From the IMG/VR virus record IMGVR_UViG_3300046836_000576: a stretch of DNA of 64,000 nucleotides, one strand, 5' to 3'. The notes under the pieces are model-generated. The model was not told where the DNA came from, ran no database searches, and worked only from the letters and a program-made list of their open reading frames with translations. Origin of the DNA: an uncultured virus (IMG/VR IMGVR_UViG_3300046836_000576) (taxonomy: Duplodnaviria; Heunggongvirae; Uroviricota; Caudoviricetes). Made by a program: the position numbers and the translations under genes. This document shows, piece after piece, positions 14,547 through 50,937 of the stretch. How positions within the stretch are numbered: position 1 is the first letter of the stretch; the number at the start of each line of letters is the position of its first letter.

Positions 14547-15053
14547 ATGGCATGGGCTTGCTTTCAAACTTATGGTGCTCAGGAACGTAAAGCTGTCGAG
14601 AACCTGACTCGACAGGGTCTAGACGCGTTTTGCCCGTTCTACACCAAACCCGTACTTCCATCTATCCGAGCACGAGGTCCTAAGGACGCTCCGTTATTTC
14701 CCTGTTACGGTTTTGTCTATCTTGAAGATAAGACGCAGTGGGGAATCCCCGGAAATACATACGGGGTCATTCGGCTTTTAACAGGAAACAAGTTAGATCC
14801 AAGACCTTTATGGGTGGCTACCACCTATATCGAGACAATTTATGAGATTCAAGCAAAGTTTGGTGGGAATGTCTTACCGGTTGATACGATAGTCAGAGTA
14901 AAAACTAAAGATAGCCCGTTTTTTGATCAAATAGGTACTGTTATTTCAATGAATTCAAACGATAGAATCCGGTTATTGATGAGTTTGTTCAATCGAGACA
15001 TTATAGTAGAATTCGAAGCAGGTGCGGATTTAGAAATTGTGGAGCTTGAGTAG
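14547..15053 (+). CDS. NusG/RfaH-family transcription antiterminator
   Basis: NGN domain (W.C.QT...ERKA..NL.RQG..AFCP, PLFPCY.FV, TYGV..LL) plus KOW-like C-terminus; start revised to MAWAC. Confidence 0.88.
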   Translation: MAWACFQTYGAQERKAVENLTRQGLDAFCPFYTKPVLPSIRARGPKDAPLFPCYGFVYLEDKTQWGIPGNTYGVIRLLTGNKLDPRPLWVATTYIETIYEIQAKFGGNVLPVDTIVRVKTKDSPFFDQIGTVISMNSNDRIRLLMSLFNRDIIVEFEAGADLEIVELE

Positions 15054-18236: not shown

Positions 18237-19196
18237 ATGTCTGATATCTATATTCCCTCACCGGATCCCAGACCCGATTTGGGTCTAACAATGTTCTACC
18301 AGACTCATCGACTGATAGAGGCCGCACCGATTGTCAGTTTTACCCATGGATCACCATCTATTGTTGTTGTAAATGATAATGGAGTCGAACATACAATTGA
18401 GGTCACCGAAGCATTCTTTACCGCAGGTGACCCTGAAATTGGTGATTACTTTGTTGCTTACCCAGACCCAGCACAAACTATGTACTGGGAAGCGAAACTG
18501 GCATTTGAGCAAGCCTATACAGTTGTAGTTGAGGGACCACCGGGTCCGCAAGGTCCGCAGGGTGAACCAGGAGAAACTGGACCACAAGGTGAACCAGGAG
18601 AAACTGGACCACAAGGTGAACCAGGACCTACTGGAAATACTGGTCCTATTGGCCCTACTGGCCCTAGTGGTCCTACTGTTGTCAGTGTTGATAATGGGAA
18701 TCTAGCCGAGCTAGGTTCTGATAATCTATTACTTGTCCCGAATACTTCAAGACTTGTGGGTGTAACTGACGGATCTGATGCACAACCTGGTGAGATTGGT
18801 GAATACGTAGTATCGGCTAACGCAGTTGGTATTGCAGTTACTTCGGATGTGCCCGCAACGATTACACAAATCACTTTGAGTCCTGGCTGCTGGGAAATGT
18901 GGGGTTGTGTTGACTTTCGACCTCCCTCCAATAAAAGTCCAAATATGATTTGTGGCAGTATTAGTTTGAATGATAACTCGCTGCCGACTGACAACGATCT
19001 GTACGTGGGCGTCGGCATTATGACGTTGTTTTATACAACGGCGCTGACATCCGGGGCGCGGCAGGTATTGATGACTGGACAATGCCGTGCTAACACTGCG
19101 GTATCTCTTACCGTTTATCTGGTAGGAGAGACGGCTTTTGGTGGTGGCGGTACTTCGAATGTTCAGGGTTACATCTGTGCTAGGCGCGTCCGATGA
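18237..19196 (+). CDS. Collagen-repeat virion protein
   Basis: G-X-Y tract; [15 protein letters not shown] and terminal ARRVR as in fibre-like phage proteins. Confidence 0.8.
18558..18627 (+). repeat. 27-bp tandem repeat (QGEPGETGP)
   Basis: GGTGAACCAGGAGAAACTGGACCACAA twice plus a partial copy. Confidence 0.85.
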
Positions 19197-19213: not shown

Positions 19214-19372
19214 ATGATCATCGAAATCCTGTTCGTCGTCGTGATGTTTCTGTGGCTCCTCACAATCCTACCCTTTCCACCATTACAACCATTCGCCACG
19301 TCAAACGTCTTCTTTGCGTTTGTGGCTGTGTTGTTGCTGGGGTTGTTTATCTTTATGCCTGGCATTAGATAA
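19214..19372 (+). CDS. Small two-TM membrane protein
   Basis: Read manually: MIIEILFVVVMFLWLLTILPF...FAFVAVLLLGLFIFMPGIR; GGAGG RBS. Confidence 0.7.
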   Translation: MIIEILFVVVMFLWLLTILPFPPLQPFATSNVFFAFVAVLLLGLFIFMPGIR

Positions 19373-19533
19373 TGCTTGGCATTATTCTTCTAGTTATACT
19401 AATCCTACTGCTTGTAGGTGGGTTGCCTAATTGGGGGCATATGGCACCTTACAACTATGGTTATTACCCATCATTTGGGGTTTTGTTATTGATAATTGTT
19501 CTACTAGTCTTGATCTTCGGAGGACATCTCTAG
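19372..19533 (+). CDS. DUF3309-like membrane protein
   Basis: Read manually: MLGIILLVILILLLVGGLPNWGH...GYYPSFG; TAATG coupling. Confidence 0.75.
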   Translation: MLGIILLVILILLLVGGLPNWGHMAPYNYGYYPSFGVLLLIIVLLVLIFGGHL

Positions 19534-22278
19534 TTGGCTGAAGTTACCGATCTCAAGCAAGTATCGGAAACAAAGAACCCGGTAAAGATAATACCGTCTG
19601 AGGTTCTGGCTAAGTCAGCCATGATTAGGCGGCCTTCAGTAGCAACTCGTAGTCCATTTGAAGTACCGAGCTTCCCGCCAGCAGTTGAGAACGCGCTAAA
19701 AGAGCGCGATATTCCAACACTGGCGATGGATGAAACAATATCTGGAACCTTTGGTTGGGCGTCCAGAGATTTTATTGCCACAGCTTATGCTGAAGGCGTT
19801 GTGTTTATGGGCTATGCCTACCTGGCTAGTCTATCACAACGCCCAGAGTACCGGGTGGTTACAGAAGTTATTGCTTCTGAAATGACTCGTGAGTGGATTG
19901 AGTTAAAGGCCGCCAGTGGTGATGAAAGCAAGTCAGACAAGATCAAGAAAATCAATGACAAGATGGACAACCTTAGGATTAGAAAGGCATTTCAAAAAGC
20001 AACAGAGGCTGATGGTTTCTTTGGTCGCGGTCATTTATACCTAGACACCGGCAAAACTCACGATGACGAAGAGTTAAGGCTGGATTTGGGTGATGGTCGC
20101 AATCTGTTGAGTAAACAGAAGGTTGGTTCGTCAAAAAGTGGTAAAGCGCAAAAGCTGATTAGAGTCTTGCCGGTAGAGCCCACTTGGTGTTATCCTACCC
20201 GGTATGACTCGGTTGATCCACTGAGCCCTGATTGGTATAACCCAATCACTTGGTTTGTAATGTCACGCGAGGTACATCGCTCAAGGTTGCTGACATTTGT
20301 TGGTCGAGAAATGCCGGACATCTTGAAACCCGCCTATGCTTTTGGCGGGTTAAGCATGTCTCAAATGCTCAAGCCCTATGTCGACAATTGGTTAAGGACA
20401 AGACAGAGTGTCAGTGATCTGATTCAGAACTTTTCACATAGTGTATTGAAAACCAATATGGACGCCACCACAGCGGTGGGTGGGGATGCACTTTTCGCTC
20501 GGGTTGCGTTGTTTAACAATATCAAGAATAACCAAGGTGCAATGGTTATTGATAAGGATGCTGAAGATTTCAGTAATGTTAGTGCCCCATTGGGTGGACT
20601 GGATTCCTTACAAGCACAATCTCAAGAACATATGGCGGCGATTGCCCGTATTCCACTGGTTAAGTTGTTGGGCATTCAGCCTGCTGGATTGAATGCAAGT
20701 AGCGAGGGTGAACTGGTTTCTTTTGAAGACTGGATTGCGGCATTTCAGGAAGTATTGTACCGGCCCAATCTGACCAAGATTATTGACCTTATTCAGTTAA
20801 GCGAGTTTGATGAAGTGGACGATGATATTACGTTTGACTTTAAGCCACTAAGACAAGAGAAGCCTGAAGAGATTGTTCAGAGAGAGCAAGTAAAGGCGAC
20901 CACTAGAGAAACCTACTATGGAATGGGTGCTGTAGATCCACAAGAGGTGCGAGATTCTCTTGCTCAGGATCCGGATAGTCCATTTGATGGTGTAGATCTA
21001 ACAAAAGAACTTCCAGCACCACCACAGCCTCCTGGTGTACCTGGTGTCCCACAACCACCAGGTGCTGCATCACAACCAGGAGGGCCAGGTGGACCACCGG
21101 GTGGGGGTCCACCATCACCTGCTTCTGGGCCACCTGGTGCAGCGCCTCCGAAACAACCGAGCCGCCCCCCGGCCCCGGGCGGAGGCGCTCCTGGTGACAA
21201 TAGTAATGATAATAATCAGAAATTAGTTGATCTATTGAATGCTAAGGTAGCGGCAGACGCTGGCTTTGATCCTAAAGACCATCCACATGCACCTGAAGGT
21301 ACTAGTGGTGGTAAAGGTGGTCAGTTTGTCAGTAAAGGTTCTGGTGCATCGGCAGCTACAGCTCCCGCCGCACCAGCAAAGCCTGCAGCTAAGGCGCAGA
21401 CTGCAAAGCCTGCTGCAAAGAAAGCAAAAACAACCACTGCCAAACCTAAGAAAGAATCAACCGTTGGGTATTACAGTCTAACTCCTGCCCCGGCCAATAA
21501 AGAAGATTGGCCAGAACATGCCAAAGACTTTAAGATCCCACCAGCCTGGACCGATGTTAGAATCAATATGGATCCTAACGCTAGGGGTCAACTAGCGGGT
21601 GGTAAAGACTCTAAGGGTCGTATTCAACCACTATTCCATCAGGAGTACAGAGATTCTCAGGATGCAAAAAAGTTTGAGCTTGAATTAAAGTTAACCCCAC
21701 ATATGCCGGAGTACAAGGAAGGAAATGATAAGAATTTGACTGCCTGGGATGGTCGAACTCGTGAACATGCTACATGTCTTGGTATAATCATGCAGATGGG
21801 CCTAAGGCCGGGTAGTGAACGAGATACAGGGGCTGAAAAGCAGGCTTATGGTGCGACTACATTACAAGGTAAGTTTGTCAAGACTGAGGGGGATAAGACA
21901 TTTTTGAGATTTACAGGTAAGAAGGGTGTCTCGTTAAACTTACCAGTTGAAGATCCCGAACTTGCCGCCTCTCTGCGCAAGATGGCAGGGGAAAATCAGG
22001 GTAAGTTGTTCACGAAGATCAATGATCAATCCTTGCGGGATTACACAAAACATATTACAAAGGGTTTAGGCAAGCCTAAGGATTTTAGGACGTTGTTTGC
22101 TAACAAGACTGCAAACGAAGTAATATCAAAGATGCGTGCACCCCCACCCGGTGATGATGCAGCTTTTAAGAAGGCCTGCCAACAGGTTGCATTGGCAGTA
22201 TCGAAAAAGCTAGGCAATACACCAGATGTCGCCTTGCGATCGTATATTAATCCGATCGTGTTCTCAGGCTGGAGATAA
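19534..22278 (+). CDS. Portal protein (DUF1073-like) fused to a type IB DNA topoisomerase
   Basis: aa 1-490 portal (GYAYLA.L.QRPEYR, IPLVKLLGI.P.GLNASSEGE); Pro/Ala linker; C-terminal IPPAWTDV, LRPG, F.GKKG, KDFRT, LGNTP, RSYINP. Confidence 0.9.
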   Translation: MAEVTDLKQVSETKNPVKIIPSEVLAKSAMIRRPSVATRSPFEVPSFPPAVENALKERDIPTLAMDETISGTFGWASRDFIATAYAEGVVFMGYAYLASLSQRPEYRVVTEVIASEMTREWIELKAASGDESKSDKIKKINDKMDNLRIRKAFQKATEADGFFGRGHLYLDTGKTHDDEELRLDLGDGRNLLSKQKVGSSKSGKAQKLIRVLPVEPTWCYPTRYDSVDPLSPDWYNPITWFVMSREVHRSRLLTFVGREMPDILKPAYAFGGLSMSQMLKPYVDNWLRTRQSVSDLIQNFSHSVLKTNMDATTAVGGDALFARVALFNNIKNNQGAMVIDKDAEDFSNVSAPLGGLDSLQAQSQEHMAAIARIPLVKLLGIQPAGLNASSEGELVSFEDWIAAFQEVLYRPNLTKIIDLIQLSEFDEVDDDITFDFKPLRQEKPEEIVQREQVKATTRETYYGMGAVDPQEVRDSLAQDPDSPFDGVDLTKELPAPPQPPGVPGVPQPPGAASQPGGPGGPPGGGPPSPASGPPGAAPPKQPSRPPAPGGGAPGDNSNDNNQKLVDLLNAKVAADAGFDPKDHPHAPEGTSGGKGGQFVSKGSGASAATAPAAPAKPAAKAQTAKPAAKKAKTTTAKPKKESTVGYYSLTPAPANKEDWPEHAKDFKIPPAWTDVRINMDPNARGQLAGGKDSKGRIQPLFHQEYRDSQDAKKFELELKLTPHMPEYKEGNDKNLTAWDGRTREHATCLGIIMQMGLRPGSERDTGAEKQAYGATTLQGKFVKTEGDKTFLRFTGKKGVSLNLPVEDPELAASLRKMAGENQGKLFTKINDQSLRDYTKHITKGLGKPKDFRTLFANKTANEVISKMRAPPPGDDAAFKKACQQVALAVSKKLGNTPDVALRSYINPIVFSGWR

Positions 22279-22475
22279 TGGCACCACTTCCTCAACCTTC
22301 CTATGGTGAATATGGCAATCATGCTGATTTGCCAACTGACGAGGAGCGGGAGGAAGAGGTTGATGAGGATGCTCCAGTTAGTCAAGACTGGATAGACATC
22401 ATGGGTTTTGACCCTGATGAGCTAGATTGGGATGACGTGGAAGAACCCGAAACCACAGAGGAAGAAGATGCATAA
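22278..22475 (+). CDS. Small highly acidic protein
   Basis: TAATG-coupled to the portal-Topo gene; D/E rich; IMGFDP motif. Confidence 0.75.
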   Translation: MAPLPQPSYGEYGNHADLPTDEEREEEVDEDAPVSQDWIDIMGFDPDELDWDDVEEPETTEEEDA

Positions 22476-22815
22476 GGGGATTCAATCGATTTGGACAGCA
22501 GAACAAGACGAAATTCTAATCAAGGCGATAAATGATGGGATGGAACAAGGGTTGACACAAAAGAAAGTCATTATTGCATTGATGAAAGCATTTGATCGAG
22601 AGTATGGGAGTATACGAACTCGAATTACCAGGCTGCGTGAGGAAAAGACGTTAGTTAACTATGTCCGCCGAAAAAGTAGAAAATCGGGCAGCGTACCTGG
22701 TGCTTATCAAAATTGGGTGGATACACGTAAGAAACCCTTCGTTAAGCCAAGTCTAAATCGACCGGATTGGTTTGACAAAGAGAATCTTCAGGAGCGAATA
22801 CTTGCCGGAAGATAA
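22468..22815 (+). CDS. HTH (GcrA/Myb-like N-terminus) DNA-binding protein
   Basis: WTAEQDEIL...R.YGSIRTRI.RL; start revised to MHKGI. Confidence 0.55.
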   Translation: MHKGIQSIWTAEQDEILIKAINDGMEQGLTQKKVIIALMKAFDREYGSIRTRITRLREEKTLVNYVRRKSRKSGSVPGAYQNWVDTRKKPFVKPSLNRPDWFDKENLQERILAGR

Positions 22816-23840: not shown

Positions 23841-25352
23841 ATGGCGTTCGATCAGACCAGCCCCGAGTTCTTAAGCCAAATGAGAAACTTTGCTCGAGGA
23901 CTGTTGTCCTGGATCAATGAAGAGGGTGAGGAAGAGGAGCACGATGAAGTGGGTGATCAAGCTAATGATGAGCAACCGCCACTGTTGAAAGTAAAGACGG
24001 TAACAGAGCATCATTACGCTGATCCGAATGGTATGGCAACGGATCCTCCTGTCAGTGAAGCGCAACGTGGTGCAATGGGTGCTGCGGCTGGTGGTAATTC
24101 TACACTTGGCATTCCCCAATCGGTTGGTAAAGAGTTTATGAATGCCGACCCCGGTGGGAAATTGCAACAAAAGGCAAAGGATGGTGCGTATTATACTCGT
24201 ACAGCAATAGGGGAAAGACAAGAAAAGCCTGCTATAGATGATCAAAATGGTCGGTTTTCATTGTCACCCGACGGTCAATATGTTATTGATAATCAGACTG
24301 GTAACCAGCATAGCATTGATGACGTTATGCGGATTTTGTTTTCTGATGGGCAAAATGATTCTGCTGCAAGCTTGAAACCAGAAGTTACCGTAGCTAAGGA
24401 TCCTGTTTCCAAGCCCATGACACCCACAGGTATGTGGAAGAGCCCAAAGATTGATCCAAGTACTCGTAGTGGCAATCCTGGTGATAACGGGAAACCTCCT
24501 CTTGGTAATGGTGAGGGTGGAACAGCACTTGGGAACTTGCTCAAGTACACTGCTGGTGAAACCAGTCGTGATGATACCATGAAAGGTGGATCGATGGGCT
24601 ATCAAGGTAATGGTTGGTCATCTCCTACAATTCCACCTCAAAAGGCAAAGGATGGTGGTCCCGGTAGTGGACCACAAAAGGGTAGGCAGCGTTCACTGCC
24701 GAAGGAACTACCGTCAGGTGAACTAAATACAAGTCCTTATAAAGGTTTGCCTGATCCTAAGTCTTCAAATGAAGCTGCTAAGGCGGCCATGAAGGCAAAC
24801 ATGCAGAAATATCAGTCTAGTGTTACGAATAGAAAACCCACAAGGGATGGTATTGGTGCCAGTATTGTAAAGGGTGCAACTACCGCAGTCAATAAAGCCA
24901 ATACTGTATCCCAAGGTGGTCCAGTATTTGGTGACGGTGGCCCTGGCAGTGGACCGCATCCGGGTGGCGGGTCTGAAGGAGGAGAGACAGTGAAGAGTAC
25001 CTCTGGTAAATCAACAGTGACTAAAGTTGAGCCCACTGCTAAAGGGGCTGTCTATCATGTTGACAGCTCTGAGCATGGTGGGTTAATGAAGAATCAGCTT
25101 CATTATACTAGTGGTGGTAATTTATATCAACACGTATCTAATGGTTCCCCTATTGCTAATAAGATCTCGTTAAAGTTTAATCCTGATATACACGATGCTG
25201 TGAAGAATCATATTAAACAACATGGATTACCCAAGTCCGTAAAGGGTGGGACTGGTTCTATTGTTCAGGCACAGCCCGGTTCGTCCTCTGTTGGGGCAAA
25301 TATTAAAAGAAATATGGCAGCTCAGGCTGGTAAACGTAGGGCTGGATTTTGA
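23841..25352 (+). CDS. Low-complexity putative internal head protein
   Basis: Repeated A-x-D motifs, two DGGPGSGP motifs, SEAQRGAM...GIPQSVGKEF segment. Confidence 0.75.
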   Translation: MAFDQTSPEFLSQMRNFARGLLSWINEEGEEEEHDEVGDQANDEQPPLLKVKTVTEHHYADPNGMATDPPVSEAQRGAMGAAAGGNSTLGIPQSVGKEFMNADPGGKLQQKAKDGAYYTRTAIGERQEKPAIDDQNGRFSLSPDGQYVIDNQTGNQHSIDDVMRILFSDGQNDSAASLKPEVTVAKDPVSKPMTPTGMWKSPKIDPSTRSGNPGDNGKPPLGNGEGGTALGNLLKYTAGETSRDDTMKGGSMGYQGNGWSSPTIPPQKAKDGGPGSGPQKGRQRSLPKELPSGELNTSPYKGLPDPKSSNEAAKAAMKANMQKYQSSVTNRKPTRDGIGASIVKGATTAVNKANTVSQGGPVFGDGGPGSGPHPGGGSEGGETVKSTSGKSTVTKVEPTAKGAVYHVDSSEHGGLMKNQLHYTSGGNLYQHVSNGSPIANKISLKFNPDIHDAVKNHIKQHGLPKSVKGGTGSIVQAQPGSSSVGANIKRNMAAQAGKRRAGF

Positions 25353-27066: not shown

Positions 27067-27177
27067 ATGACATGGTTGTATTTTATACTGGTTGGGGTCG
27101 TTGTTTTAGCTTTAATCAGTTGGGCGCTAGATAAACCACCACCACCTGATAGTGAGTTTGATGACGACTGGCCTTAG
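27067..27177 (+). CDS. Small membrane peptide (36 aa)
   Basis: Read manually: MTWLYFILVGVVVLALISWALDKPPP... Confidence 0.45.
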   Translation: MTWLYFILVGVVVLALISWALDKPPPPDSEFDDDWP

Positions 27178-29161
27178 GGAATACCTGATTGGAAGGCTGC
27201 CGCTCCTGTCATTAGCGTTTGATGAGAGCGCTAAACAGAGAAAAGATAAGTATGATTTAGATGTTTGCTGTAATTATGGGGATGAAGCCCCGGCCAAAGG
27301 TAAGGCGGCAAGTGTAGCATTCTTTACCCCACAAAATAAGGTCCTATTTGTAAAACGATCAGCATCAGAAGAAAATTGGGCTGATACTTGGTCCTGGCCC
27401 GGTGGTAAGGTAGATGATGGCGAGGGCGAGTATGATGCGGTTCGTCGTGAATGTGAAGAAGAACTTGGTCATTGTCCAGAAGATGATGGTCAGTGGATTA
27501 AAGTAGAGACTAAACGAACACCATTTGGTTGGGATCATACTACTTTTGCTTGTCCGGTAGAGGATGAATTTGAACCTACATTAAACAGTGAACATTCAGC
27601 TTATCTTTGGCGTGGATTGAATGAATTACCTGAACCACTTCATCCAGGAGTAAAGGCATCATTAGAGAAGTTGAAAGATATTGCAGAGGACGAAGAGCCC
27701 GTCCCACTAGATCCTGATATCTTAGAACTTGCTCGAAACATGCCTTCAAATATCATTCAACAATTGTATCAACTACAGGCCGAGCGTGATAGGTATCGGG
27801 AGCCTGGTGAAGACGCTGAATTCAAGAATCCCGCACAGGATGCAGCACTTAGGCAATTTCTATTTTGTCGTTTACCGAACCTTCTTGCCTATGATGCACC
27901 AGAAGGTACCTGGTCAGAAGAAGTGCATCCTAGAGACAAGACTGGTAAATTTGCCAAGAAAGGTAGTGCTTCACCTAAATTGATAAAGCAGTTGAAGGAT
28001 GCAGGGTATATAGAGCATCCTGATTTCTCTAAAACAGAAATATACCACCATCCGGAAACAGGGCATCATGTCGGTTTTATCGGAATGAGTGGGAATAGCA
28101 ATGCAATCAAACATCTGCCACCCACAGGTAAACCTTCAAAGCTGATTATTGGCCAGAAGGGTATTGCGGAATTCTTACAAAGGGTGCATGGTCATGGTGG
28201 TGGTCCAGTAGATACTGGTACGGAATCAAAGCAAACAGAAAAGGCAATCAAGAAGAAGACTCTAACTCCAAGGGAAAGGATTAAGCAGATCATTGATCCA
28301 ATGGGTTATTATCATACCGTTGAAGCGCAAACAATAGAAGCATTTAAGAATGCCAATATAGCGATAGATATAAGTGGCGGTTCGTGGGGGCGCCCATCAG
28401 AGTTTAGATTAAGGGAATGGAAGGGTACGAAGGTTATTCAACCGGAGGAACTTGATCCTGAACTTCAGCATACGTTTGATCACTTAAAAGAATCTAGTGA
28501 GATGGCAACTAAGGCTTCCATTAGTCTCAGTCATCGTTTAACTGATGAGGAAGCGAAGGAAGTAAAGAGCTTGGTCGCTGAGGAATTAGATTATCCTGAT
28601 AAGAAGATCAAGATAAGCAAGGCAACGCCAACCGATAGATTGAATGGTCGTAGGTTTAGGGTTGCTGGTCATGCTTTCCTGAATACAGGGATTATTAAGA
28701 TTTATCAAAAGAACGTTAGTAGTCGCTCTATTTGCGCAGTTACAGCTCATGAAGTAATGCATCAAAAGTGGGAAGCGGTTAAGCGACAATATGAGAAGGA
28801 ACAAGCTGAATTTCATAAGAAAAGGGCTGAGATCTATCCTAATGATCTCTCAATTGAAGAGGTCAACAGGGATTATCCCACTTATGCTGCAATTGGACTT
28901 ATGCCTGCTTCTGCATTACAGAAGCATGATGGATTGACTGACTATAGTCGGGATTGGTGGAAGTCATACGAAGATGGGCATACTTCCAGTACTAGATTGC
29001 CAATTCATGAGACTTTAGCTGAAATGGCTGCATTAGATTGGGAAGGTATGTTGAACGAAAAAGATTTATCAATATGGTACAGGGATCCTAACCCTTGGAA
29101 GAAGATTTATAAGGCGATTTTAGAGAGATTCCCGCATGTACCAAAGATACAGAGATATTAA
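27152..29161 (+). CDS. Multidomain head-associated protein: NUDIX hydrolase + zincin metallopeptidase
   Basis: Nudix box GGKVDDGEGEYDAVRRECEEELG; HPRDKTGKF motif; HEVMH and downstream ETLAE. Confidence 0.85.
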   Translation: MSLMTTGLREYLIGRLPLLSLAFDESAKQRKDKYDLDVCCNYGDEAPAKGKAASVAFFTPQNKVLFVKRSASEENWADTWSWPGGKVDDGEGEYDAVRRECEEELGHCPEDDGQWIKVETKRTPFGWDHTTFACPVEDEFEPTLNSEHSAYLWRGLNELPEPLHPGVKASLEKLKDIAEDEEPVPLDPDILELARNMPSNIIQQLYQLQAERDRYREPGEDAEFKNPAQDAALRQFLFCRLPNLLAYDAPEGTWSEEVHPRDKTGKFAKKGSASPKLIKQLKDAGYIEHPDFSKTEIYHHPETGHHVGFIGMSGNSNAIKHLPPTGKPSKLIIGQKGIAEFLQRVHGHGGGPVDTGTESKQTEKAIKKKTLTPRERIKQIIDPMGYYHTVEAQTIEAFKNANIAIDISGGSWGRPSEFRLREWKGTKVIQPEELDPELQHTFDHLKESSEMATKASISLSHRLTDEEAKEVKSLVAEELDYPDKKIKISKATPTDRLNGRRFRVAGHAFLNTGIIKIYQKNVSSRSICAVTAHEVMHQKWEAVKRQYEKEQAEFHKKRAEIYPNDLSIEEVNRDYPTYAAIGLMPASALQKHDGLTDYSRDWWKSYEDGHTSSTRLPIHETLAEMAALDWEGMLNEKDLSIWYRDPNPWKKIYKAILERFPHVPKIQRY

Positions 29162-29407
29162 ATGATTGAACATCGAGAAATAGATGGGCGTCCTGCATCA
29201 GTGGTATATCTTGATGAGGACATGGCACCAGCAGAGCGTGATGATGCAACTATAGTCAAGATCTTGTTTGATGATGGTGAGATAAAGTGGTTAGTTGCTG
29301 ATGATAGTGAAGACAACGACGAAGATAAAGAAGATGACGAAGAAGATACTGACGAAGACGAAGCAGAAGATTCCGGTTGGAAAAGTCCTCATTTTAGAAA
29401 GATATAG
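29162..29407 (+). CDS. Small acidic protein
   Basis: Abuts the previous gene; long D/E tail. Confidence 0.75.
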   Translation: MIEHREIDGRPASVVYLDEDMAPAERDDATIVKILFDDGEIKWLVADDSEDNDEDKEDDEEDTDEDEAEDSGWKSPHFRKI

Positions 29408-31206
29408 TGAGAATGGTTATTGGTAATAAGGGATGGGCAGGTGTCACCCGTGGTGGTGGTATTGGTGACAATATTGTAACATCTTCGGTTTTACCGGGAC
29501 TTAAGAAGCGTTATGGACATGTTGAAGTAATTAGTGCATCACCACATCATGTAGTGTTTGAAAATAATCCTTACATTGACAAGTTATCTGTACATGCTCC
29601 GGAAGACATTCCTCTTGAAAGTGGTCCTAATTGGCACTGGATTAGATCAAAGGAATTTGAATTCTATATAAACTTGTCACATTCGATTGAGTTTCAGCAG
29701 GCATTCTTTTCTAGCCAATATCAGTTCCAGTGGCCCAAAGAGGCTAGACACAAGATCGCTAATCGTTCTTATCTAGAAGTAGCACATGATATTGCACTAA
29801 TTCCTTATGATGAAATAGCGCCTGCTTTCTACCCAACTAAAGAAGAAGTCTCTGATGCCCAAGCAATCAAACAGAAAATTGGTGGTCACTTTATTGCCTG
29901 GATGATTAAAGGTACACGATGTGACAAGGTACATCCTTATGCACCATCAATCATTGCCAAGCTGATACAGGAAATAAAACTTCCAGTAGTATTGATGGGA
30001 TCGGCTCGTGAACTAGAATTAGCTAATCTAATTCGCGCTGATCTGATTAAGATAAATGGGGACGCTAACGGATTAAGAAGAGCAATCACTGAACCTGGTG
30101 ACGAATGGCCGATTAGACGCAGCTTGACTTTGGCACAACAGGCTGATTTAGTTATTGGTCCAGATACGGGTGTATTGTGGGCCTGCGCTATGCGTGACAT
30201 GCCAAAGATTGTAATGTTATCCCATGCTTCCCCTGAGAACATTACTAAATATTGGGTGAGAACATCAACTCTACACGCCGATGTCAATAGAGTTGATTGT
30301 TGGCCTTGTCATCGACTACATGATAATATGGTAACATGCAGGCAGAACGAAGAGCAAACAGGCGCAGCTTGTATTAGTGATATATCGGTTAAGTCTATTG
30401 TGCAGGAAGCACATAAGTTGTTGGCCACGGGAACGGTGTCGGTTACTACAGCGTCACCGAAACAGAGTACCGATATTTGTACTTACAAGCATGGACGTCT
30501 GATTTACTTTCCTGGTGACCCTTATATGGGTAAGTTTCTCTCTGAACATGGTGAATATTCCGAGGGTGAAGTTGATCTGTTTAGACAGATTTTACAACCA
30601 GATGATTGCGTTATTGAAGTTGGTGCGAATATCGGGTGTCACACTATTCCACTAGCTAGAATGTGTAGGTCTGTTATTGCCATAGAACCTCAAACCACGT
30701 TGTTTAATACTTTGTGTGGTAATCTTGCTCTTAATGGTATTTCTAATGTTCAGGCAATCAATGCCGCTGCCGGTTCTGAAGTCGGAAGTTGTGTTGTTCC
30801 AATTGTTGATTATCAAGCATTGGGTGTTAATTTTGGTGGCATTTCAATGCTGCCTGCGGGTAGTTCAGGTCAGAAGATTACTATGATGATGTTAGTTGAT
30901 TTAAGGCATTTGGTATCTAATCTAAAACTAATCAAAGCCGATGTTGAGGGGATGGAGTGGAACGTATTGATGGGGGCATGGCCTCTTATTTCAGAACATA
31001 GACCTTACTTGTATTTAGAAGATGATCGAGAAGATAAACGTGAACGTTTACATACCTTGCTTAGAGAGATGAATTATCGAATTTATCAGCATCATCCACC
31101 TTATGTTATTGGACACAATAACTTGGTTTCTCTAAACCTGTTTTGTGTCCCTGAGGAAAAGGAACTAGACCATGACGTTTCAATACGGCACGGCCTTACG
31201 CAATAA
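29407..31206 (+). CDS. GT9-like glycosyltransferase fused to FkbM-family methyltransferase
   Basis: GGIGD, NNPYID, ADLVIGPDTG, CWPCH; EVGANIG.HT, IEPQ, IKADVEG.E. Confidence 0.88.
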   Translation: MRMVIGNKGWAGVTRGGGIGDNIVTSSVLPGLKKRYGHVEVISASPHHVVFENNPYIDKLSVHAPEDIPLESGPNWHWIRSKEFEFYINLSHSIEFQQAFFSSQYQFQWPKEARHKIANRSYLEVAHDIALIPYDEIAPAFYPTKEEVSDAQAIKQKIGGHFIAWMIKGTRCDKVHPYAPSIIAKLIQEIKLPVVLMGSARELELANLIRADLIKINGDANGLRRAITEPGDEWPIRRSLTLAQQADLVIGPDTGVLWACAMRDMPKIVMLSHASPENITKYWVRTSTLHADVNRVDCWPCHRLHDNMVTCRQNEEQTGAACISDISVKSIVQEAHKLLATGTVSVTTASPKQSTDICTYKHGRLIYFPGDPYMGKFLSEHGEYSEGEVDLFRQILQPDDCVIEVGANIGCHTIPLARMCRSVIAIEPQTTLFNTLCGNLALNGISNVQAINAAAGSEVGSCVVPIVDYQALGVNFGGISMLPAGSSGQKITMMMLVDLRHLVSNLKLIKADVEGMEWNVLMGAWPLISEHRPYLYLEDDREDKRERLHTLLREMNYRIYQHHPPYVIGHNNLVSLNLFCVPEEKELDHDVSIRHGLTQ

Positions 31207-33175: not shown

Positions 33176-33426
33176 TGGCGTGGGTCCGCTCTGGCGAATG
33201 CTGTAAATGTGGTGATTGTTGCCGGGGTGGTATCGGTAACCTTCCAGCACAACCAGATGGTGCCTGCCCGTTCCTAGAACGTGAAGAGGACGGACAGCGT
33301 CTTTGCGCCATACACGATTCTCAAAACACTTATTGGTCGCGCGGTTGCAATGTGTGGCCAGATCATCCCCATCAAATTAGGAATTACGATCGCTGCACGT
33401 TCAGTTTTGTGTGGCAGGATGACTGA
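33172..33426 (+). CDS. YkgJ-like cysteine-cluster protein
   Basis: CCKCGDCC, CPFL, CAIH, CNVWP. Confidence 0.8.
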   Translation: MMAWVRSGECCKCGDCCRGGIGNLPAQPDGACPFLEREEDGQRLCAIHDSQNTYWSRGCNVWPDHPHQIRNYDRCTFSFVWQDD

Positions 33427-36400
33427 TGGCCGTCCAAACTATCTATCTGCTGGGCACAGCGGGAGTTACACCGAACTTCTGGGGCAACACCCAACTTAAC
33501 GGTTCTGCTCCAACTGCGGCCAATTCTGCCTTCGGCTGGGGACCAGCCAAGACCGCTGTCACTACGCCTTATTATCGTGGACGCTTAGGAGCAACCACTA
33601 CCGGCTCTGATGCCGCTGTCTCAACCAGCTACAACGCGGGTCGAGCGACACCACAACCCGGCACTGGTACTGGTGCGGCGACGGCGGGCGACAGCTTTGT
33701 TGTTGGTCCACTAACTGGTACTTTTGCCGCTACCGCGTGGACCTTTAACTTCAATCTGCGCGCCGGGACAGCGGGGGCGATCGGCCATGTCAACATGCGG
33801 ATGTGGCGTGGTACCCTTGCTAACGGTTCTAATGCTACACAGGTCGTCGCTAACACTGTGGGTGCGACAGTCACCCTATCAACCAGCGCCGATGTTAATA
33901 GCTCGATCACCGCCTCGCCGGGGCAGTTGGTACTCAACAATGAGTACCTGTTCTTTCAGGTAGAGTGGCAGGAAACCACTGCCGGATCGAGTAACAGCGA
34001 CAATGTCTTCTTCCGTATCGGTACGGCTTCGATCACCACCGCTGATTATGTTGCCGCCGCGACCGGCACGGTTGCTGTTACTGAGATTTCCGACACGATC
34101 GTCTCGACCGGTAGAACTCCCTATGTTGGCACGCTTGCTGTTACTGAGATTTCCGACACGATCGTCGCGGCAGGCGGTCCAAGGATAGCCGGAACGCTCG
34201 CTGTTACCGAGATTTCCGACACGCTCGTCGCAACGGCGGAAGGTCCAGCGGCTCCGATAGCGGTCGCCCCCTGGCCCCCAGCCTTCCCGCAACACGGCGC
34301 AGGGCAAAGTTTAGGTGTAACAAACTTTGCCGCACCGGGTGCGGTGCAGCCCTCGATCAGTGGGTTGGTCGCCGGTCCTTGGCCCCCCGCCTTCCCGCAG
34401 CACAGGGCGGGGCAGACAACCGGTGTTACCAACTATACGCATCCCGGTGCGGTGCAACCGGTTTACCAGATCGCTGATACTGGTATTGTTAATGGTAATC
34501 TTTCCCGGGCTGAAATACCGGATATACTGACAGCAACTGGCACTGTTCTAAGTGGTGTTGGTGGTAATCTCTCCCAGATTGAAGCGCTCGATACGATAAC
34601 TGCTGCTGGCAATGTTCCAGTAATTGGTAATCTCTCTATTGTTCAGGCGTCACAGACCATCTCCTCTACTGGTACTGTGACCATACGTGGTACATTAAGT
34701 CAGCTACAGGCACCAAATACTTTATCAGCAGTTGCTAGGGCAACCGTTACTGGTACACTTAATCTTCCACAAGCAAATAATACAATATCAGCAACTGGTA
34801 CTCCTATTGTTGCTGGTACACTTAATCAGAATCAAGCTAATAATACAATTATAAGTACTGGTACTGTTGTAGTTCGTGGTGTACTCAATCAACTTCAAGC
34901 AAATCAAATAATCTCCTCAACTGGTGCTGTACTTTCGCCAGTCATTGGTACTCTAAGTGTTAATGAAGCGGCGGATTCGGTTTCTGCCACGGGCACGGTT
35001 GCTAATCCGCTCGATGTTGTTTTGCTTTGTCACTTTGACACGGGATTTATTGACTTTTCGAACTACGCGCACAAGCTAACCCCGATTGGCAATGTCATCC
35101 TCTCAGGAGCCAATCCGAAATTTGGTTCTGGTTCTGCGAACTACGTCATCGGGAACGGTGCCAATTCAATCGACACCGGCAATTCGTCTGATTTTTACTT
35201 TGGTGCCGCGCCGTTTACGATCGAGGCTTGGTGCTATGCGACCCAATCGGGGACCGGTGACGGCTATGATCCGATCCTGGCCCAGTGGGACGCGGTCCTC
35301 GGTAATGTCGGCTTTTTCTTTAATGTCTTTCCGCAGATCATGTTTTTCTGGAGTCCTGACGGCAACGCTTATTCCTACATCTCATCCACCGGGCCATTGT
35401 CGCCGTTAAACGCTTGGCACCATGTCGCGGCTGACCGAGACGCCACGGGCTTTTTACGTCTTTACCTAGACGGTGCTGTAGTTGCTTCTGGTCCGTGTCT
35501 AGACAGTTTCTATCATTCGTCACTAACCACTCGGATCGGGAATGACAATAGTGCTGGTCGCGCGTTCCCCGGGTATATAGATGAAATAAGAGTGGTGCGG
35601 GGCACCGCTGTCTATGGTGGTGCTTTTACACCACCGACAGCACCGTTCCCCAATCCATTACCTAGCGGTTTTAGCGGTTCGCTTAATGTTACCCAAGCTA
35701 ATCAGATAATTACAAGTACTGGTACTATTGTAGTTAGTGGTGCTCTTAATCAACCACAAGCAAACAATACAATAGCGTCCACTGGTACTGTCACTATTCT
35801 TGGGACGCTAAGTCAGTCACAAGCACCTAATACTTTATCGGCAGTGGTTAGAGCCACTGTTTCTGGTACGCTTAATGTTCTTCAAGCACCAAATACTTTA
35901 TCAGCGATCGCTAGAACCAATGTTACTGGCACTCTTGGTCAGTTACAACCACCAAATACTTTAGTAGCAACTGGCTCGGTTCTTTCTGGTATTGGTGGTG
36001 CTCTTAATGTTCTTCAAGCGTCACAGACATTAACAGCGGCCGGTAATTCACCCTATGTTATCAAAGGTGATCTTAGTCAGCTACAGGCACCAAATACTTT
36101 ATCAGCAGTTGCTAGAGTAACCGTTACAGGTACTCTTGGTCAGTTACAACCACCAAATGCACTTGTTGCGACGGGCAGTTTGGTTGTTAGTGGTACTCTT
36201 AGTCGGCTTCAAGCTACACAAACAATTACTACCACTGGTACAATCACTGTTGGTGGTGTTCTTAATCGAGTACAAGTATCTAATACAATAGTTTCTACTG
36301 GTGTGGTTGTTGTTACTGGTACATTAAATCAACTACAGTTATCAAATACTTTATCAGCTACTGGATCAGCTCTTTCTGGTATTGGTGGTGCTCTTGATGT

Positions 36401-36968
36401 TCTTCAAGCATCACAAACAATATCAGCAACCGGTAGTGTGCCTTATGTTGCTACACTTAATCAGGTTCAGGCGTCTAATACTATAGTTGCTACTGCTAGT
36501 CTTGTAGTTGTTGGTACACTTAATCGAACACAAGCAAATAATACAGTAGTATCAGAAGCTTCAGCTATTGCTGGTGGTGTACTCAATCTAGTTCAAGACA
36601 ATCAGTCATTTATTGGTACGGGTAGAATTGTTGTTGAAGGTACTTTACGAGTTGCTCAAAATGATAACATAGTAAGTGCAACTTGCTTTGTTGATAAGAT
36701 TACAGCAGATCTTGAAGTAGTAGAGACAAACGATACAATTACAGGATTTGCTTCTATTGGTGCTGCTTGGTTCCCTGCTGTTCCTGGTGTAATTCCAGGT
36801 ACACCACCTGATCGGATATTAGTTGGTGATAACCCTGATAGGCTGGTTGTTGCTGGTGAAAATGGTAGTCGTACAAGTACAGGCACTGCTCCTAACAGAA
36901 CGAACGTTGCCGGTGGTAATGGTAACAGGACAATATCTGTCCCATCCCGTCGTAGGATTGCCGCATGA
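33426..36968 (+). CDS. Large repeat-rich head fibre/decoration protein with LamG domain
   Basis: About 21-25-aa G(T/A)L.Q.QA.NT repeats flanking a LamG domain ([25 protein letters not shown]). Confidence 0.85.
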
Positions 36969-37606
36969 TCGCAATGGTTGGAGCATTTAACCCACTCAAG
37001 TCGCAATCCAGTCCTATTGCGATGGATCAAAACCCATCTGTGCGCAGGGTTAGTGAAGACGGTCATATGCACGTTGAAAATAGCAACATATCAAAAGCGA
37101 CTGTTAATCCATACTGGGGTGAAGAGATTCCGGACTATGAAAGATTAGGATTAGACCCTGCTAGAAAGTATTGGTTGTTAAGGCATCCCAAGGAATTGGC
37201 AAAGGGTGCTAGAACCTTTAACAACTTACCTATACTCGCGAAACATCAGCCTATTAGTTCAGATAAGCATCCAGCTGATTTAGTGGTTGGTTCTACTGGT
37301 ACCAATGCTGTTTATAGACATCCTTATCTGCAGAATAGTTTGGTTTTTTGGACAAAACCCGCCATAGATTCAATTGAAGATGGTGAACAGAGAGAGTTAT
37401 CTTGTGCGTATCATTACGACCCTTTAATGACCCCAGGTATGTATGAGGGTCAGCACTATGATGGGATTATGACTAATATACGAGGCAACCATGTCGCGCT
37501 CGTCGAGGATGGCCGTGCGGGCTCGGATGTAGTTGTAGCTGATGCTGCTTTTGATGAGAATTTAGGTCATTGGTGGACTATTGTTCATGCTGTGGTTCGG
37601 ATTTAG
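36965..37606 (+). CDS. Prohead protease (DUF2213-like)
   Basis: ISKA.VNPY.G.EIP, RELSCAY, YDG.MTNI.GNHVALV..GRAG.DV. Confidence 0.88.
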
Positions 37607-38194
37607 TTTACATTTATCGAAATGCCATCGCTTCAAAACCATTAGATTACTTTCCAATCCACAGTGTGGGCAATGAACTCTTATGTGAGCACCTGACTTT
37701 TGTAGAGATGCAGCTTTTCGACCACCAACAAGTCCTGCCTTTCGACCAATCTCTGAGCTTTGTTCTTTAGTTAGATTTATGCGACTTCTTAATCCAGCTT
37801 CATGACCTTGTTTAGACTTTTGCTCAAATGTTTTCGACTCTGCTGAGGCTTTACCTGCTTTTCGACCGATTTCTGAACTTCTCTCTGGTGTTAATGCTTT
37901 AGCTCGAGCTAGCCCACCATTTCTACTATTACCTTTCCGGCCCATTAGGCTTCTTAGTTGTCTTCGTTTCTCTGGATCCATTGTTACAATAGGTATTTTG
38001 GAATAGTGAACCGTGTCAACTTTGTAACCTTTCTTAATCTGCCACCACTTCTCACGATCACCAGCTTCTTTAGGTGTATTGCATACTTCAATAACTACAA
38101 GATTAGTTCCTTTTGGGTACCACTTTGCCTTTTCCTCTATAGTAAGCTGTGTACAACCAACCTTTTTCCCGGGTATTTCATAGATTATGTACAT
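37562..38194 (-). mobile_element. Antisense free-standing putative homing endonuclease (GIY-YIG-like)
   Basis: YIIY...KVGCT, EAGDREK, repeated SSEIGRKAG helices, CPHCG..RWHFDKCK; only clear minus-strand gene in the late region. Confidence 0.65.
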
Positions 38195-38243: not shown

Positions 38244-39482
38244 ATGAGCAAGCAACTTCTAAAAGCATTACGAAAAAAGTACCGAACGCCACAAGATGCG
38301 GTGCGGGCGCTCGGCTTAGACGCCGCTCTTCTAGACGATAAGGAGGTATCTATGCCTGATCCTAAGCCCGTACCAAAGCCTGATACAAAACTAGCGCCGG
38401 CAGCTATGGTTGCCAAAGGTGCTCTGCTTACCTATCTCACACCTCGCCTCGCTCAAGATGCTGCACCCCTTGACTATAACTCCATTGTGCGTGGAGTTAC
38501 GTCAAAGAACTTTAACAGCAGAAAGACCGACATCATCAAGACGGTCAAGTATGCGACCAAAGGCAAGTTGGCCAAGGATGCTGATATCCAGGATCTAGCC
38601 AACCTTTTGGACGCATTGTCACCTTCTGCGGGTCAGGCAGATGTTGAGGGTGGGATGATGCCTCAGGGTGGTGGTGGACCGCCTCCCATGCAGACGGAGC
38701 CCAATGCTGGGCCGCCCATGGGTGCATCACCAGAGGAAGATGGTGAACCCGAAGATGTTGTTGCAAAGATTAAGGCATACCTTGAGCAAGAAGGGGTATC
38801 GCCTGAGATCTTGCAGAACCTTGACGCATTTCTCGCTGAGCAAGGCAATCCTGATCCTGACCTCAGTGGAGGTGGCGGCGCTCCTCCTCCCGACAATGGT
38901 GGTGGTGGCGGTGGTGGCGGCGGCGAGGAACAGCAGAGTAAAGACCCCAATGGAAACGGAGGAGATCAAGGTATGGCCAGCAACATTCCGCCCCCGACCG
39001 CAATCGGCGGTATGGACGAAAACGAGCTTGAGGATTGCGTGAGCGACGAAGAGGAAGAGACCGAAGAGGAGCGCAAAAAGCGCGAAGAGGCAATGGATGA
39101 AGTTGTCCCCTCTGAGCAATCCGAGCCGGTGACAAAGACGGCAATGGACGCGGCAATCAAGCGCGCTGTTGCTCGTACTGTCCAGACCCAGAAGAACATT
39201 CGCGCAGCTGAGCGCTTTGTTCGTCCTTGGGTTGGTGACCTGGCTATGGATGCTGCTCGGCCGTCCGATGTTTACCGTACTGCCTTAAAGGCACTCGGTA
39301 TGGACTCGGCAAAGGTCGACAAGATGCATCCGGATGCCTTGTTGCCTGTGCTTGAAGCGCAGCCTCGGCCTAGTGTTCGTCGTCCCAATCAGGGCGGCCC
39401 GCGCATGGCGGCGGATGCCAAGATTGAAGGCGGTTCGTTCGCTGAGCGGTTCGACTTCACCAAGAACATCACTATTCAGTAA
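38244..39482 (+). CDS. Capsid scaffold protein
   Basis: Acidic low-complexity middle; AMDAA motifs; V.P.VG.LAMD C-terminus; second start at 38352 with AGGAGG. Confidence 0.8.
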   Translation: MSKQLLKALRKKYRTPQDAVRALGLDAALLDDKEVSMPDPKPVPKPDTKLAPAAMVAKGALLTYLTPRLAQDAAPLDYNSIVRGVTSKNFNSRKTDIIKTVKYATKGKLAKDADIQDLANLLDALSPSAGQADVEGGMMPQGGGGPPPMQTEPNAGPPMGASPEEDGEPEDVVAKIKAYLEQEGVSPEILQNLDAFLAEQGNPDPDLSGGGGAPPPDNGGGGGGGGGEEQQSKDPNGNGGDQGMASNIPPPTAIGGMDENELEDCVSDEEEETEEERKKREEAMDEVVPSEQSEPVTKTAMDAAIKRAVARTVQTQKNIRAAERFVRPWVGDLAMDAARPSDVYRTALKALGMDSAKVDKMHPDALLPVLEAQPRPSVRRPNQGGPRMAADAKIEGGSFAERFDFTKNITIQ

Positions 39483-50289: not shown

Positions 50290-50937
50290 ATGGATTACTA
50301 CGTCTATGTACTGATTCGATCTGACAATGGAAAGCCTTTCTACGTTGGATGTGCCATACAACTAGGTCGGATCAGTACACATCTTTCAGGTAGGGATACA
50401 GCAACAGGTACGATTGTTCGGTCTCTTCGTGATCTAGGATATGAAACCATTCCAATAATAGTGAGGGATGATATAGAATATAAAGAAGCTCGTTTGATTG
50501 AGACTTGTTTAATAGATGCGCTTAATGGGTTGATTGTAAACAAACGTAGATATGTTGGTGGGTTTTGTGAAGAAACTAGACGTCGAATGTCCCTTGCCAA
50601 ACTCGGGAAGCCTAGTGCAAGAAAAGGTAAAAGATATGGACCTACTGAGCGAGGTAAGATTGCTCAAGGACAATTAGGTTGGATAACAAATGGTGTTGAA
50701 GATAAAAGAGTCAATAAGAACAACCCTATTCCTGATGGTTGGTATCGAGGCCGAAGTTTAATAGTTACTCAACAAGAATTAGATAAACGAATTGAACAGA
50801 AACAAGAGAATCGAAAGATTTGGCTTTATCGAAATCGAAATCGATCTTGGATCACGAACGGTTTAAAGAGTAAAAGGCTTCTTGATACTGACCCTATTCC
50901 TGATGGTTGGTATCTTGGACGAAAAGTCAACCGGTAA
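50290..50937 (+). mobile_element. Free-standing GIY-YIG homing endonuclease
   Basis: YYVY...PFYVG...R...H, E..LI, ETRRRMS.AK (NUMOD3-like), WITNG...IPDGWY.GR twice; AT-rich. Confidence 0.82.

Follow-up and report, generated by a model that had tools for sequence, protein, structure and literature searches.

Phage heads are known to carry a few enzymes, of which Alt of T4 and the RNA polymerase of N4 are examples, and the leader of the T4 internal proteins is removed by the prohead protease. The T4 internal proteins and Alt possess an N-terminal capsid-targeting leader, and the enzymes are injected with the DNA (PMC5512222). Polyvalent proteins, as presented in the same paper, include effectors fused to portal or MuF proteins, such as the portal-InPase fusion BcepF1.124 (Iyer et al., 2017; PMC5512222). 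The vaccinia H6R topoisomerase is placed among the "known virion enzymes" (PMC1540416), and the type IB topoisomerase (TopIB) of the poxvirus virion provides a functional precedent (PMC1540416; PMC11980589) for the protein described here. This protein, a portal fused to a TopIB, is encoded at positions 19534..22278 of a stretch of 64,000 nucleotides (nt), hereafter the window, from a large, uncultured soil phage of the Caudoviricetes (IMG/VR record IMGVR_UViG_3300046836_000576). Comparison of its relatives suggests that the phage probably carries TopIB inside its particle, as poxviruses do.

Among described systems, the fusion is closest to the portal/MuF-fused effectors, as far as the main text of Iyer et al. 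(2017) presents them. Both have an enzyme on a capsid-internal carrier, encoded among the late genes of a portal-terminase phage, with predicted packaging and injection, and the relatives of the window protein share InPase, ADP-ribosyltransferase, NUDIX, 2H/Acb1, and zeta toxin domains with those effectors (PMC5512222). The only occurrence of "topoisomerase" in that main text is in the reference list, and no leader tag or acidic partner was found in the passages compared. Poxvirus TopIBs (2h7f, 2h7g, 3igc) have the same fold and the same catalytic residues, with N in the window protein for H265. However, they are 21–22% identical to it and are free core proteins of a eukaryotic virus, without portal tether, tag, or acidic partner. 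Bacterial TopIBs (Deinococcus radiodurans 2f4q/3m4a; Pseudomonas aeruginosa PAT, as treated in PMC2666729) share with it the Asn at the His265 position and the two-domain layout. They are ~25% identical to the window protein and stand alone at ~330–350 amino acids (aa), whereas its nearest relatives are for the most part multidomain phage proteins. The T4 leader is comparable to the window tag in its proposed role, and a tag of the window type is also found internally, between modules. Solo phage-type topoisomerase I genes are listed for some jumbo phages (PMC7824862). No packaged or portal-fused phage TopIB was found in the literature search, which was made partly by title and start of abstract.

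The portal–topoisomerase fusion

The fusion is real and its domains are intact. A single 914-aa open reading frame (ORF) on the plus strand begins with a TTG at 19534, 9 nt downstream of a Shine-Dalgarno sequence (GGAGGA, 19519..19524, +, read directly), and ends at 22278. It comprises the portal body (aa ~56–497, 19699..21024), a Pro/Gly-rich disordered tether (aa ~499–571, 21028..21246), a leader tag, VAADAGFDPKDHPHAPEGTSGGKGGQFVSKGSG (aa 572–601, 21247..21336), an Ala/Lys-rich disordered linker (aa ~602–649, 21337..21480), and TopIB (aa ~650–914, 21481..22275), all on the plus strand. TopIB is divided into an N-terminal beta-sheet domain (aa ~660–701) and a catalytic domain (aa ~703–914). 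In Pfam, PF06381 (Phage_portal_3) covers aa 95–457 (E 1.9e-75, 254 bits against a cutoff of 33.8) and PF01028 (Topoisom_I) covers aa 704–895 (E 8.7e-21, 74.8 bits against 23.7), while PF21338 (Top1B_N_bact, aa 664–686) stays under its cutoff of 27 with 21.1 bits. The PHROG family phrog_146, "portal protein", matches aa 56–497 (E 2.6e-102), and the match to NCBIfam TIGR01555, with 95.6 bits, does not reach the cutoff of 196.25. Two domains of disparate activity are found in one polypeptide, as in polyvalent proteins. A small, very hydrophobic ORF (19373–19533, +) precedes the fusion, and its stop codon directly abuts the portal TTG.

The portal-linker-TopIB layout had been proposed earlier in a reading made from the sequence only, and it is borne out by Pfam, PHROG, and Foldseek. 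Every motif named in that reading is at its place: VAAD at aa 572, GFDPKDHPH at 577, GGQF at 595, LRPG at 757, GKKG at 795, KDFRT at 849, LGNTP at 893, and RSYINP at 902, with the codon of Tyr904 at nt 22243. An AlphaFold2 model built on an alignment of 37 fusions has a mean predicted local distance difference test score (pLDDT) of 75.2. The portal (aa ~90–490) and TopIB (aa ~650–914) are modeled confidently and are separated by ~150 disordered residues. The score is below 50 at aa 499–578, 590–595, and 600–643, and climbs slightly, to 50–56, at the leader tag. Foldseek matches the two halves separately. The TopIB half is matched to variola and D. radiodurans TopIB with template modeling (TM) scores of 0.55–0.70; the variola structures 2h7f, 2h7g, and 3igc are found at E ~2e-11 and TM 0.68–0.70, with ~280 columns aligned to the 313–314-residue variola enzyme.

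The topoisomerase is complete and, judging from its residues, apparently active. In HMMER alignments, no solved structure matches the sequence better than D. radiodurans TopIB (2f4q; E 3.4e-17), and variola TopIB (2h7f) follows at E 5.2e-6. R758, K796, R852, N895, and Y904 pair with the catalytic residues of both. The catalytic residues of the vaccinia enzyme are R130, K167, K220, R223, H265, and Y274, and Asn replaces the His in bacterial TopIB (PMC2666729); that paper prints "Arg-237" for D. radiodurans, where the chain count used here gives 239. The set R758, K796, K849, R852, N895, and Y904 is invariant in all 37 full-length portal-TopIB fusions that were aligned, and 36 of the 39 invariant columns of this alignment lie at position 660 or beyond, that is, in the TopIB part. 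The suggestion from the sequence that all catalytic positions are recognizable holds up in these comparisons. The N-terminal beta-sheet DNA-binding domain is also present, with strands at 673–677, 686–691, and 697–701 (pLDDT ~87–91).

The whole 2745-nt ORF is present in all seven separate viral contigs that were found, at 100% in four, with a single mismatch in one, and at 97.7% in two. The 97.7% variant has one uninterrupted frame of 912 aa and differs from the window by 44 synonymous and 10 non-synonymous codons; six of the latter fall in the linker region (aa 491–660). In addition, the Ala/Lys linker of the variant has lost a single codon at aa 611 and another at aa 632. The domains of the fusion are under purifying selection. 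The reading frame is preserved by selection through a low-complexity linker of 150 residues, which counts against the fusion being an accident of gene order. Continuity across the portal-TopIB junction was also seen in metagenomes. All sampled words of 20700–21800 are contained in 24 soil or rhizosphere runs, and no RNA run is among the sequencing runs listed for these words. In three of the four metagenome runs examined, which may include the source sample of the window, a single contig with 0 differences spans 19300–22500; the fourth gave only an edge piece of the ORF (66% of that run was read).

Leader tag, carriers and acidic partner

Judging from the comparison of relatives, the TopIB cassette is a widespread mobile unit that consists of a leader tag, TopIB, and a small acidic partner. 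The tag consensus in the relatives is D-[AE]-x-[FW]-x-E-x-[DEK]-H-P-R-(3-10 residues)-G-[QKE]-F-[GSTV]-[SK]-G-G-G, ~30 residues in all. It stands before each cargo module, in up to five copies in one protein. In the window it is situated between the Pro/Gly and the Ala/Lys linkers, as a variant with HPH replacing HPR. A regular expression for the tag is found within 140 aa upstream of TopIB in 85 of the best 150 relatives, and in the alignment of 37 fusions the tag R, G596, and F598 hardly vary. When the 120 nearest portal relatives were searched with a loose form of the motif, it was found in 21 of 29 portals of at least 700 aa vs. 1 of 91 shorter ones. It is also present in 56 of 120 stand-alone or short TopIBs, within the first 40 residues in 37 of them, and others have evident variants. 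Variants of the tag are likewise found before TopIB where the carrier is a lambda-, HK97-, or Mu-type portal or MuF. By this distribution the tag behaves as a cargo marker. Its presence at the N-terminus of stand-alone TopIBs and with several portal families argues for a loading peptide, and processing is favored by the single copy found at each junction of multi-enzyme chains.

Many cargo-less PF06381 portals (41 of the 91 shorter than 700 aa; P0122–P0237) end in "...AA", often "...KAA" or "...EAA". The sequence KVAA/DAGF of the window thus resembles the natural end of a portal to which a cargo leader has been joined. An "A-x-D" cleavage site had been proposed at this place. The conserved element is instead the ~30-residue tag, and VAA/DAGF is where the portal end meets it.

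A word search of metagenomic proteins with the TopIB part gave 162 relatives, of which 120 were listed and the first 54 scanned with Pfam. In 28 of these 54, a PF06381 portal is N-terminal to TopIB, and other portal families precede it in four: PF05136, PF04860 twice, and PF06074 (lambda, HK97, and Mu types). An InPase domain is situated between portal and TopIB in six portal fusions. The DUF2213 protease is combined with TopIB in two (P0004 and P0017), ADP-ribosyltransferase domains occur in five, NUDIX in five (in one together with anti-CBASS Acb1), and zeta toxin in one, and nine have an unannotated N-terminus. MuF (PF04233)-TopIB fusions appear in the precomputed domain annotation of the listed relatives. 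The carriers have in common a place inside the capsid, and the co-domains are host-directed effectors. One relative (P0016) is named "anti-CBASS Acb1 family protein" at NCBI. Pfam finds portal and TopIB in it and no Acb1, which points to a mislabeling of the portal family.

An exhaustive HMMER scan returned 4212 representative clusters at E ≤ 1e-3, of which 835 reach E ≤ 1e-30. The best 150 relatives include 114 of at least 450 aa. In 115 of the 150, TopIB extends to within 20 aa of the C-terminal end, and a PF06381-like portal is found in 31, always N-terminal to TopIB. Many TopIB carriers come from contigs of more than 100 kb. In the deposited phage collection, 1013 records match the fusion, none at 80% coverage or more and none beyond the portal half. 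There the TopIB part matches a single gene, top1E of Bacteroides phage BS162P1; this was considered as a member of the cassette family and rejected, being a short solo TopIB among small unannotated genes.

The nearest relatives of the window portal (59–74% identical) are without TopIB. A maximum-likelihood tree was built from the portal parts of the 120 nearest relatives, 10 of which carry TopIB. On it, the TopIB label needs at least eight changes (mean of 9.8 when shuffled), six of them forced by well-supported branches. The window portal groups with three bare portals at 98% support. TopIB has been swapped often among portals that work without it, and other carriers lie off the DNA channel; together these observations favor a cargo loaded into the capsid over a portal-specific swivel.

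Downstream of the fusion, an ORF for a 65-aa, Asp/Glu-rich acidic partner (22278..22475, +) begins with an ATG that overlaps the TopIB stop (TAATG). Among 1144 stop-to-stop pieces of the window, this ORF is the only significant match to a profile of 48 distinct acidic modules (E 2.1e-4; next best 2.6). The modules of this family are found after TopIB, fused to it or as a gene of their own, which in the window overlaps the TopIB stop. The conserved ~55 residues of the module read ...PDVHFG...DWR...DDPDDEEL-ETP-DV--MLGFDP... A survey was made of 80 viral loci, from which seven of the same phage, one without the TopIB part, and one ending at a contig edge were dropped. In 53 of the remaining 71, the motif [LMIV][LMIV]G[FVIL]DP follows TopIB at a distance of up to 450 nt (median 141 nt); this is a lower bound, because in five of the 18 misses the DNA after TopIB is shorter than 450 nt, and a near-variant is seen in at least one. 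Relative to TopIB, the module is read in frame +1 at 23 loci, in frame +2 at 24, and in the TopIB frame at six. A programmed frameshift from TopIB into the acidic ORF was considered and rejected, since no single shift fits all three frames; the module is a coupled separate gene or a fusion. It lies within the chain in 17 of 456 proteins, directly after TopIB in 16. The module is thus fused in some genomes and separate in others, which suggests that it forms a functional pair with TopIB. In a model of one natural leader-TopIB-tail protein (P0393), the acidic tail has a pLDDT of 64–81 and the linkers of less than 50, which is compatible with the tail packing on TopIB. The partner may be a DNA-mimicking mask or a chaperone for TopIB. 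"GFDP" in the window tether was also examined as a remnant of the acidic module, and the profile match (six residues, E 6.9) was not significant.

Portal structure and genome neighborhood

The best Foldseek matches of the portal half are the portals of E217 (8fvh_O; E 1.4e-16, TM 0.70) and Pa193 (9b41; E 2.0e-15, TM 0.70), and the portals of Pam3, T1, and XM1 are also found. The E217 and Pa193 portals have the same fold, at 24–25% identity to the window portal half. In E217 gp19, the C-terminal barrel "projects into the head" (PMC10329688), in line with the earlier statement that the portal C-terminus lies inside the head. The C-terminal part of the E217 and Pa193 portals projects into the head, and the window portal carries TopIB on its C-terminus. 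E217 gp19 has 765 aa, of which residues 97–528 are modeled (8fvh), and that description does not account for ~237 C-terminal residues inside the head (PMC10329688).

By analogy, the portal would form a dodecamer at a unique capsid vertex. The proposal of up to 12 TopIB per head is a fair one. The window and the adjoining 61 kb, which are covered by the related viral record G001, revealed no other portal gene. This record matches 31905–64000 of the window at 99.997% and runs 61 kb further, so that the genome is at least ~125 kb. No second TopIB was found in G001.

The phage is contractile-tailed. The window contains, in order, a NusG-like antiterminator, the small and large terminases, a collagen-repeat fiber gene, the portal, and 14 kb of large ORFs. 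These are followed by the DUF2213 protease, scaffold-like, minor, and major head proteins, endolysin, MuF, sheath, tape measure, baseplate hub, and fibers. The head and packaging genes begin at 15053 (small terminase), 16187 (large terminase), 19534 (portal), 36965 (protease), and 40576 (major head protein). The fusion is thus encoded among the virion and late genes of a portal-terminase phage, as polyvalent effectors are. The DUF2213 (PF09979) head-maturation protease (36965..37606, +; Pfam E 1.8e-45, phrog_2229 E 1.3e-85) is a candidate processing enzyme. The 428-aa profile of phrog_2229 covers protease and scaffold, which are split in the window into DUF2213 (36965–37606) and a scaffold-like ORF (38244–39482); an unannotated 210-aa ORF (37562–38194) lies between them on the opposite strand.

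Several other ORFs of this region are noteworthy. A collagen-repeat (G-x-y) fiber-like gene (18237–19196, +) is situated between the large terminase and the portal, an unusual location for a fiber gene. In a 669-aa ORF (27152–29161, +), a NUDIX domain (aa 50–168) is accompanied by the tag WSEEVHPRDKTGKFAKKG at nt 27926 and by a zincin-like HEVMH motif near aa 533. From these features it looks like a second tagged cargo of polyvalent type that might also be a peptidase involved in processing. A 503-aa ORF without family matches (23841–25352, +) contains two DGGPGSGPxxG repeats, possibly another kind of cargo tag; they are likened to a GN[FW]GHxGRPGxxGGS motif that stands before TopIB on MuF fusions. 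Two more large ORFs are without the strict tag: a 599-aa ORF (29407–31206, +) with an FkbM-type methyltransferase domain at aa 404–559, and a repeat-rich 1180-aa ORF (33426–36968, +) with a Laminin_G_3/ConA-like domain. An HNH/homing-endonuclease-like ORF (50290–50937, +) lies between the tail sheath and later tail genes.

Possible roles of the tethered topoisomerase

With moderate confidence, TopIB can be regarded as cargo that is carried by the virion, freed near the tag, and brought into the host with the DNA. For packaging, copy number, cleavage, ejection, the role of the partner, and the physiological target, we infer the following course. The only portal detected in this phage would bear the cargo cassette on its C-terminus, facing the head interior, and assembly of the dodecamer would place up to 12 TopIB molecules in each head, at the vertex of DNA entry and exit. 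Proteolysis in or near the leader tag would free TopIB from the portal, and the freed enzyme would leave the particle together with the DNA. In the newly infected cell it may remove torsional stress from the incoming genome of at least 125 kb. This relief might help early transcription and replication, like the virion-borne TopIB of vaccinia. A role of the latter in early transcription is reportedly known from work of Da Fonseca and Moss in 2003. Until delivery, the acidic partner would most likely mask the DNA-binding surface of TopIB. The sequence-only reading had left the choice between a swivel and an injected enzyme. Its identification of the protein stands and the loading it proposed is plausible; its cleavage site was imprecise, and the comparative evidence leans to cargo.

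Several points weigh against delivery as cargo. For this phage and its relatives, no virion proteomics, cleavage, or activity data were found. The strain comparison of the TopIB part is thin, with two synonymous and one non-synonymous differences. By estimate, the tether spans at most ~52 nm when fully extended and cannot reach the host through the contractile tail, which is far longer, so that delivery needs cleavage, and a folded TopIB of 30 kDa must unfold to pass the tail tube. The window tag has HPH where the R is nearly invariant. The tag is found on several portal families and hence probably together with several protease families, which a universal docking peptide fits better than a cleavage site. 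In stand-alone TopIBs the N-terminal tag has nothing to separate, and it may serve for targeting only, with the fusion left uncut. Apart from these points, a complex prediction for the leader (aa 560–615) with the DUF2213 protease of the window, run without controls, scored 0.03 against a mark of 0.32 and speaks neither for nor against cleavage. In a separate search for prohead-protease sites, by eye and without statistics, no tag-like motif was seen in the major head protein and scaffold sequences.

A more far-reaching version of the cargo reading is offered tentatively, and it is rather less likely than not to be right in full. Tag, TopIB, and acidic partner would form a self-contained, horizontally mobile "packaged topoisomerase" module of tailed phages, in which the tag serves to load and release cargo across portal and protease families. 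The partner, as a DNA-mimicking inhibitor, would prevent TopIB from binding DNA both in the producing cell and in the packed head. After release at the tag, TopIB would enter with the genome, and large phage genomes would depend on it when they are first transcribed or replicated.

Of the rival explanations, an injected weapon survives best, and it is unlikely. TopIB would nick or relax the host chromosome, hit rival elements, or defeat a topology-sensing defense, with the acidic ORF as its immunity protein. TopIB shares one polypeptide with ADP-ribosyltransferase, zeta toxin, NUDIX, and Acb1 domains in some relatives, the cassette is swapped frequently, as expected in an arms race, and toxin and immunity genes are likewise arranged with a small gene coupled tightly downstream. 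Such a layout, and MuF polymorphic toxins, were reportedly treated by Jamet et al. in 2017. However, the catalytic set is invariant and competent for religation, which is superfluous in a pure nicking toxin, only about 12 molecules would enter per infection, and the acidic module is often fused to TopIB (in 16 proteins), which is unusual for an immunity protein.

Slightly less likely again is a swivel, that is, a TopIB which stays on the portal, relieves twist during packaging or exit, and is never injected. The enzyme is located at the DNA channel on a long flexible tether, and no cleavage has been demonstrated. TopIB works without ATP (PMC2666729; established knowledge). The portal is the commonest carrier (28 + 4 of the first 54 and 31 of the best 150 relatives), and twist could matter more in the large genomes to which contigs of more than 100 kb, the source of many carriers, belong. 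Against this, the cassette is also found on MuF, on the prohead protease, in effector polyproteins, and as stand-alone genes, none of which is fixed at the channel. The nearest portals work without TopIB, with eight label changes on the tree, and a dedicated acidic partner suggests an enzyme that is kept off DNA rather than on it.

A late function in the cytoplasm of the producing cell, in replication or concatemer processing, is improbable. In this case the portal fusion would be accidental and the cargo perhaps clipped and discarded. It would agree with solo TopIBs encoded outside head modules, such as BS162P1 top1E, and with the solo topoisomerases that PMC7824862 lists for jumbo phages. 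It does not agree with recurrent, independent fusion specifically to capsid-internal proteins, with the conservation of tag and acidic partner, or with the selection that keeps the frame open through the linker. Last, the artefact of two genes joined through a misassembled low-complexity stretch, for which the Pro/Gly- and Ala/Lys-rich junction might speak, is refuted for practical purposes by the same ORF in seven separate viral contigs, the in-frame variant with whole-codon deletions only, the spanning contigs without differences, and dozens of divergent fusions with the same domain order.

With 835 representative clusters at E ≤ 1e-30 and most of the best 150 relatives multidomain, TopIB carriers of this kind are common, though unstudied, in environmental phages. 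In the literature searched, no phage is described that packages a topoisomerase, and such a packaged enzyme fits the known concept of portal-fused effectors. The comparative data expose two reusable handles, a cargo tag used across many phage lineages and an acidic partner of TopIB. If the tag is a loading signal, it would be a portable means of loading chosen foreign proteins into phage capsids. If the module is packaged as proposed, it would be an independent counterpart, in bacterial viruses, of the virion topoisomerase of poxviruses. If TopIB is both loaded and delivered, DNA topology at entry would be a controlled variable of phage infection, in parallel to poxviruses.

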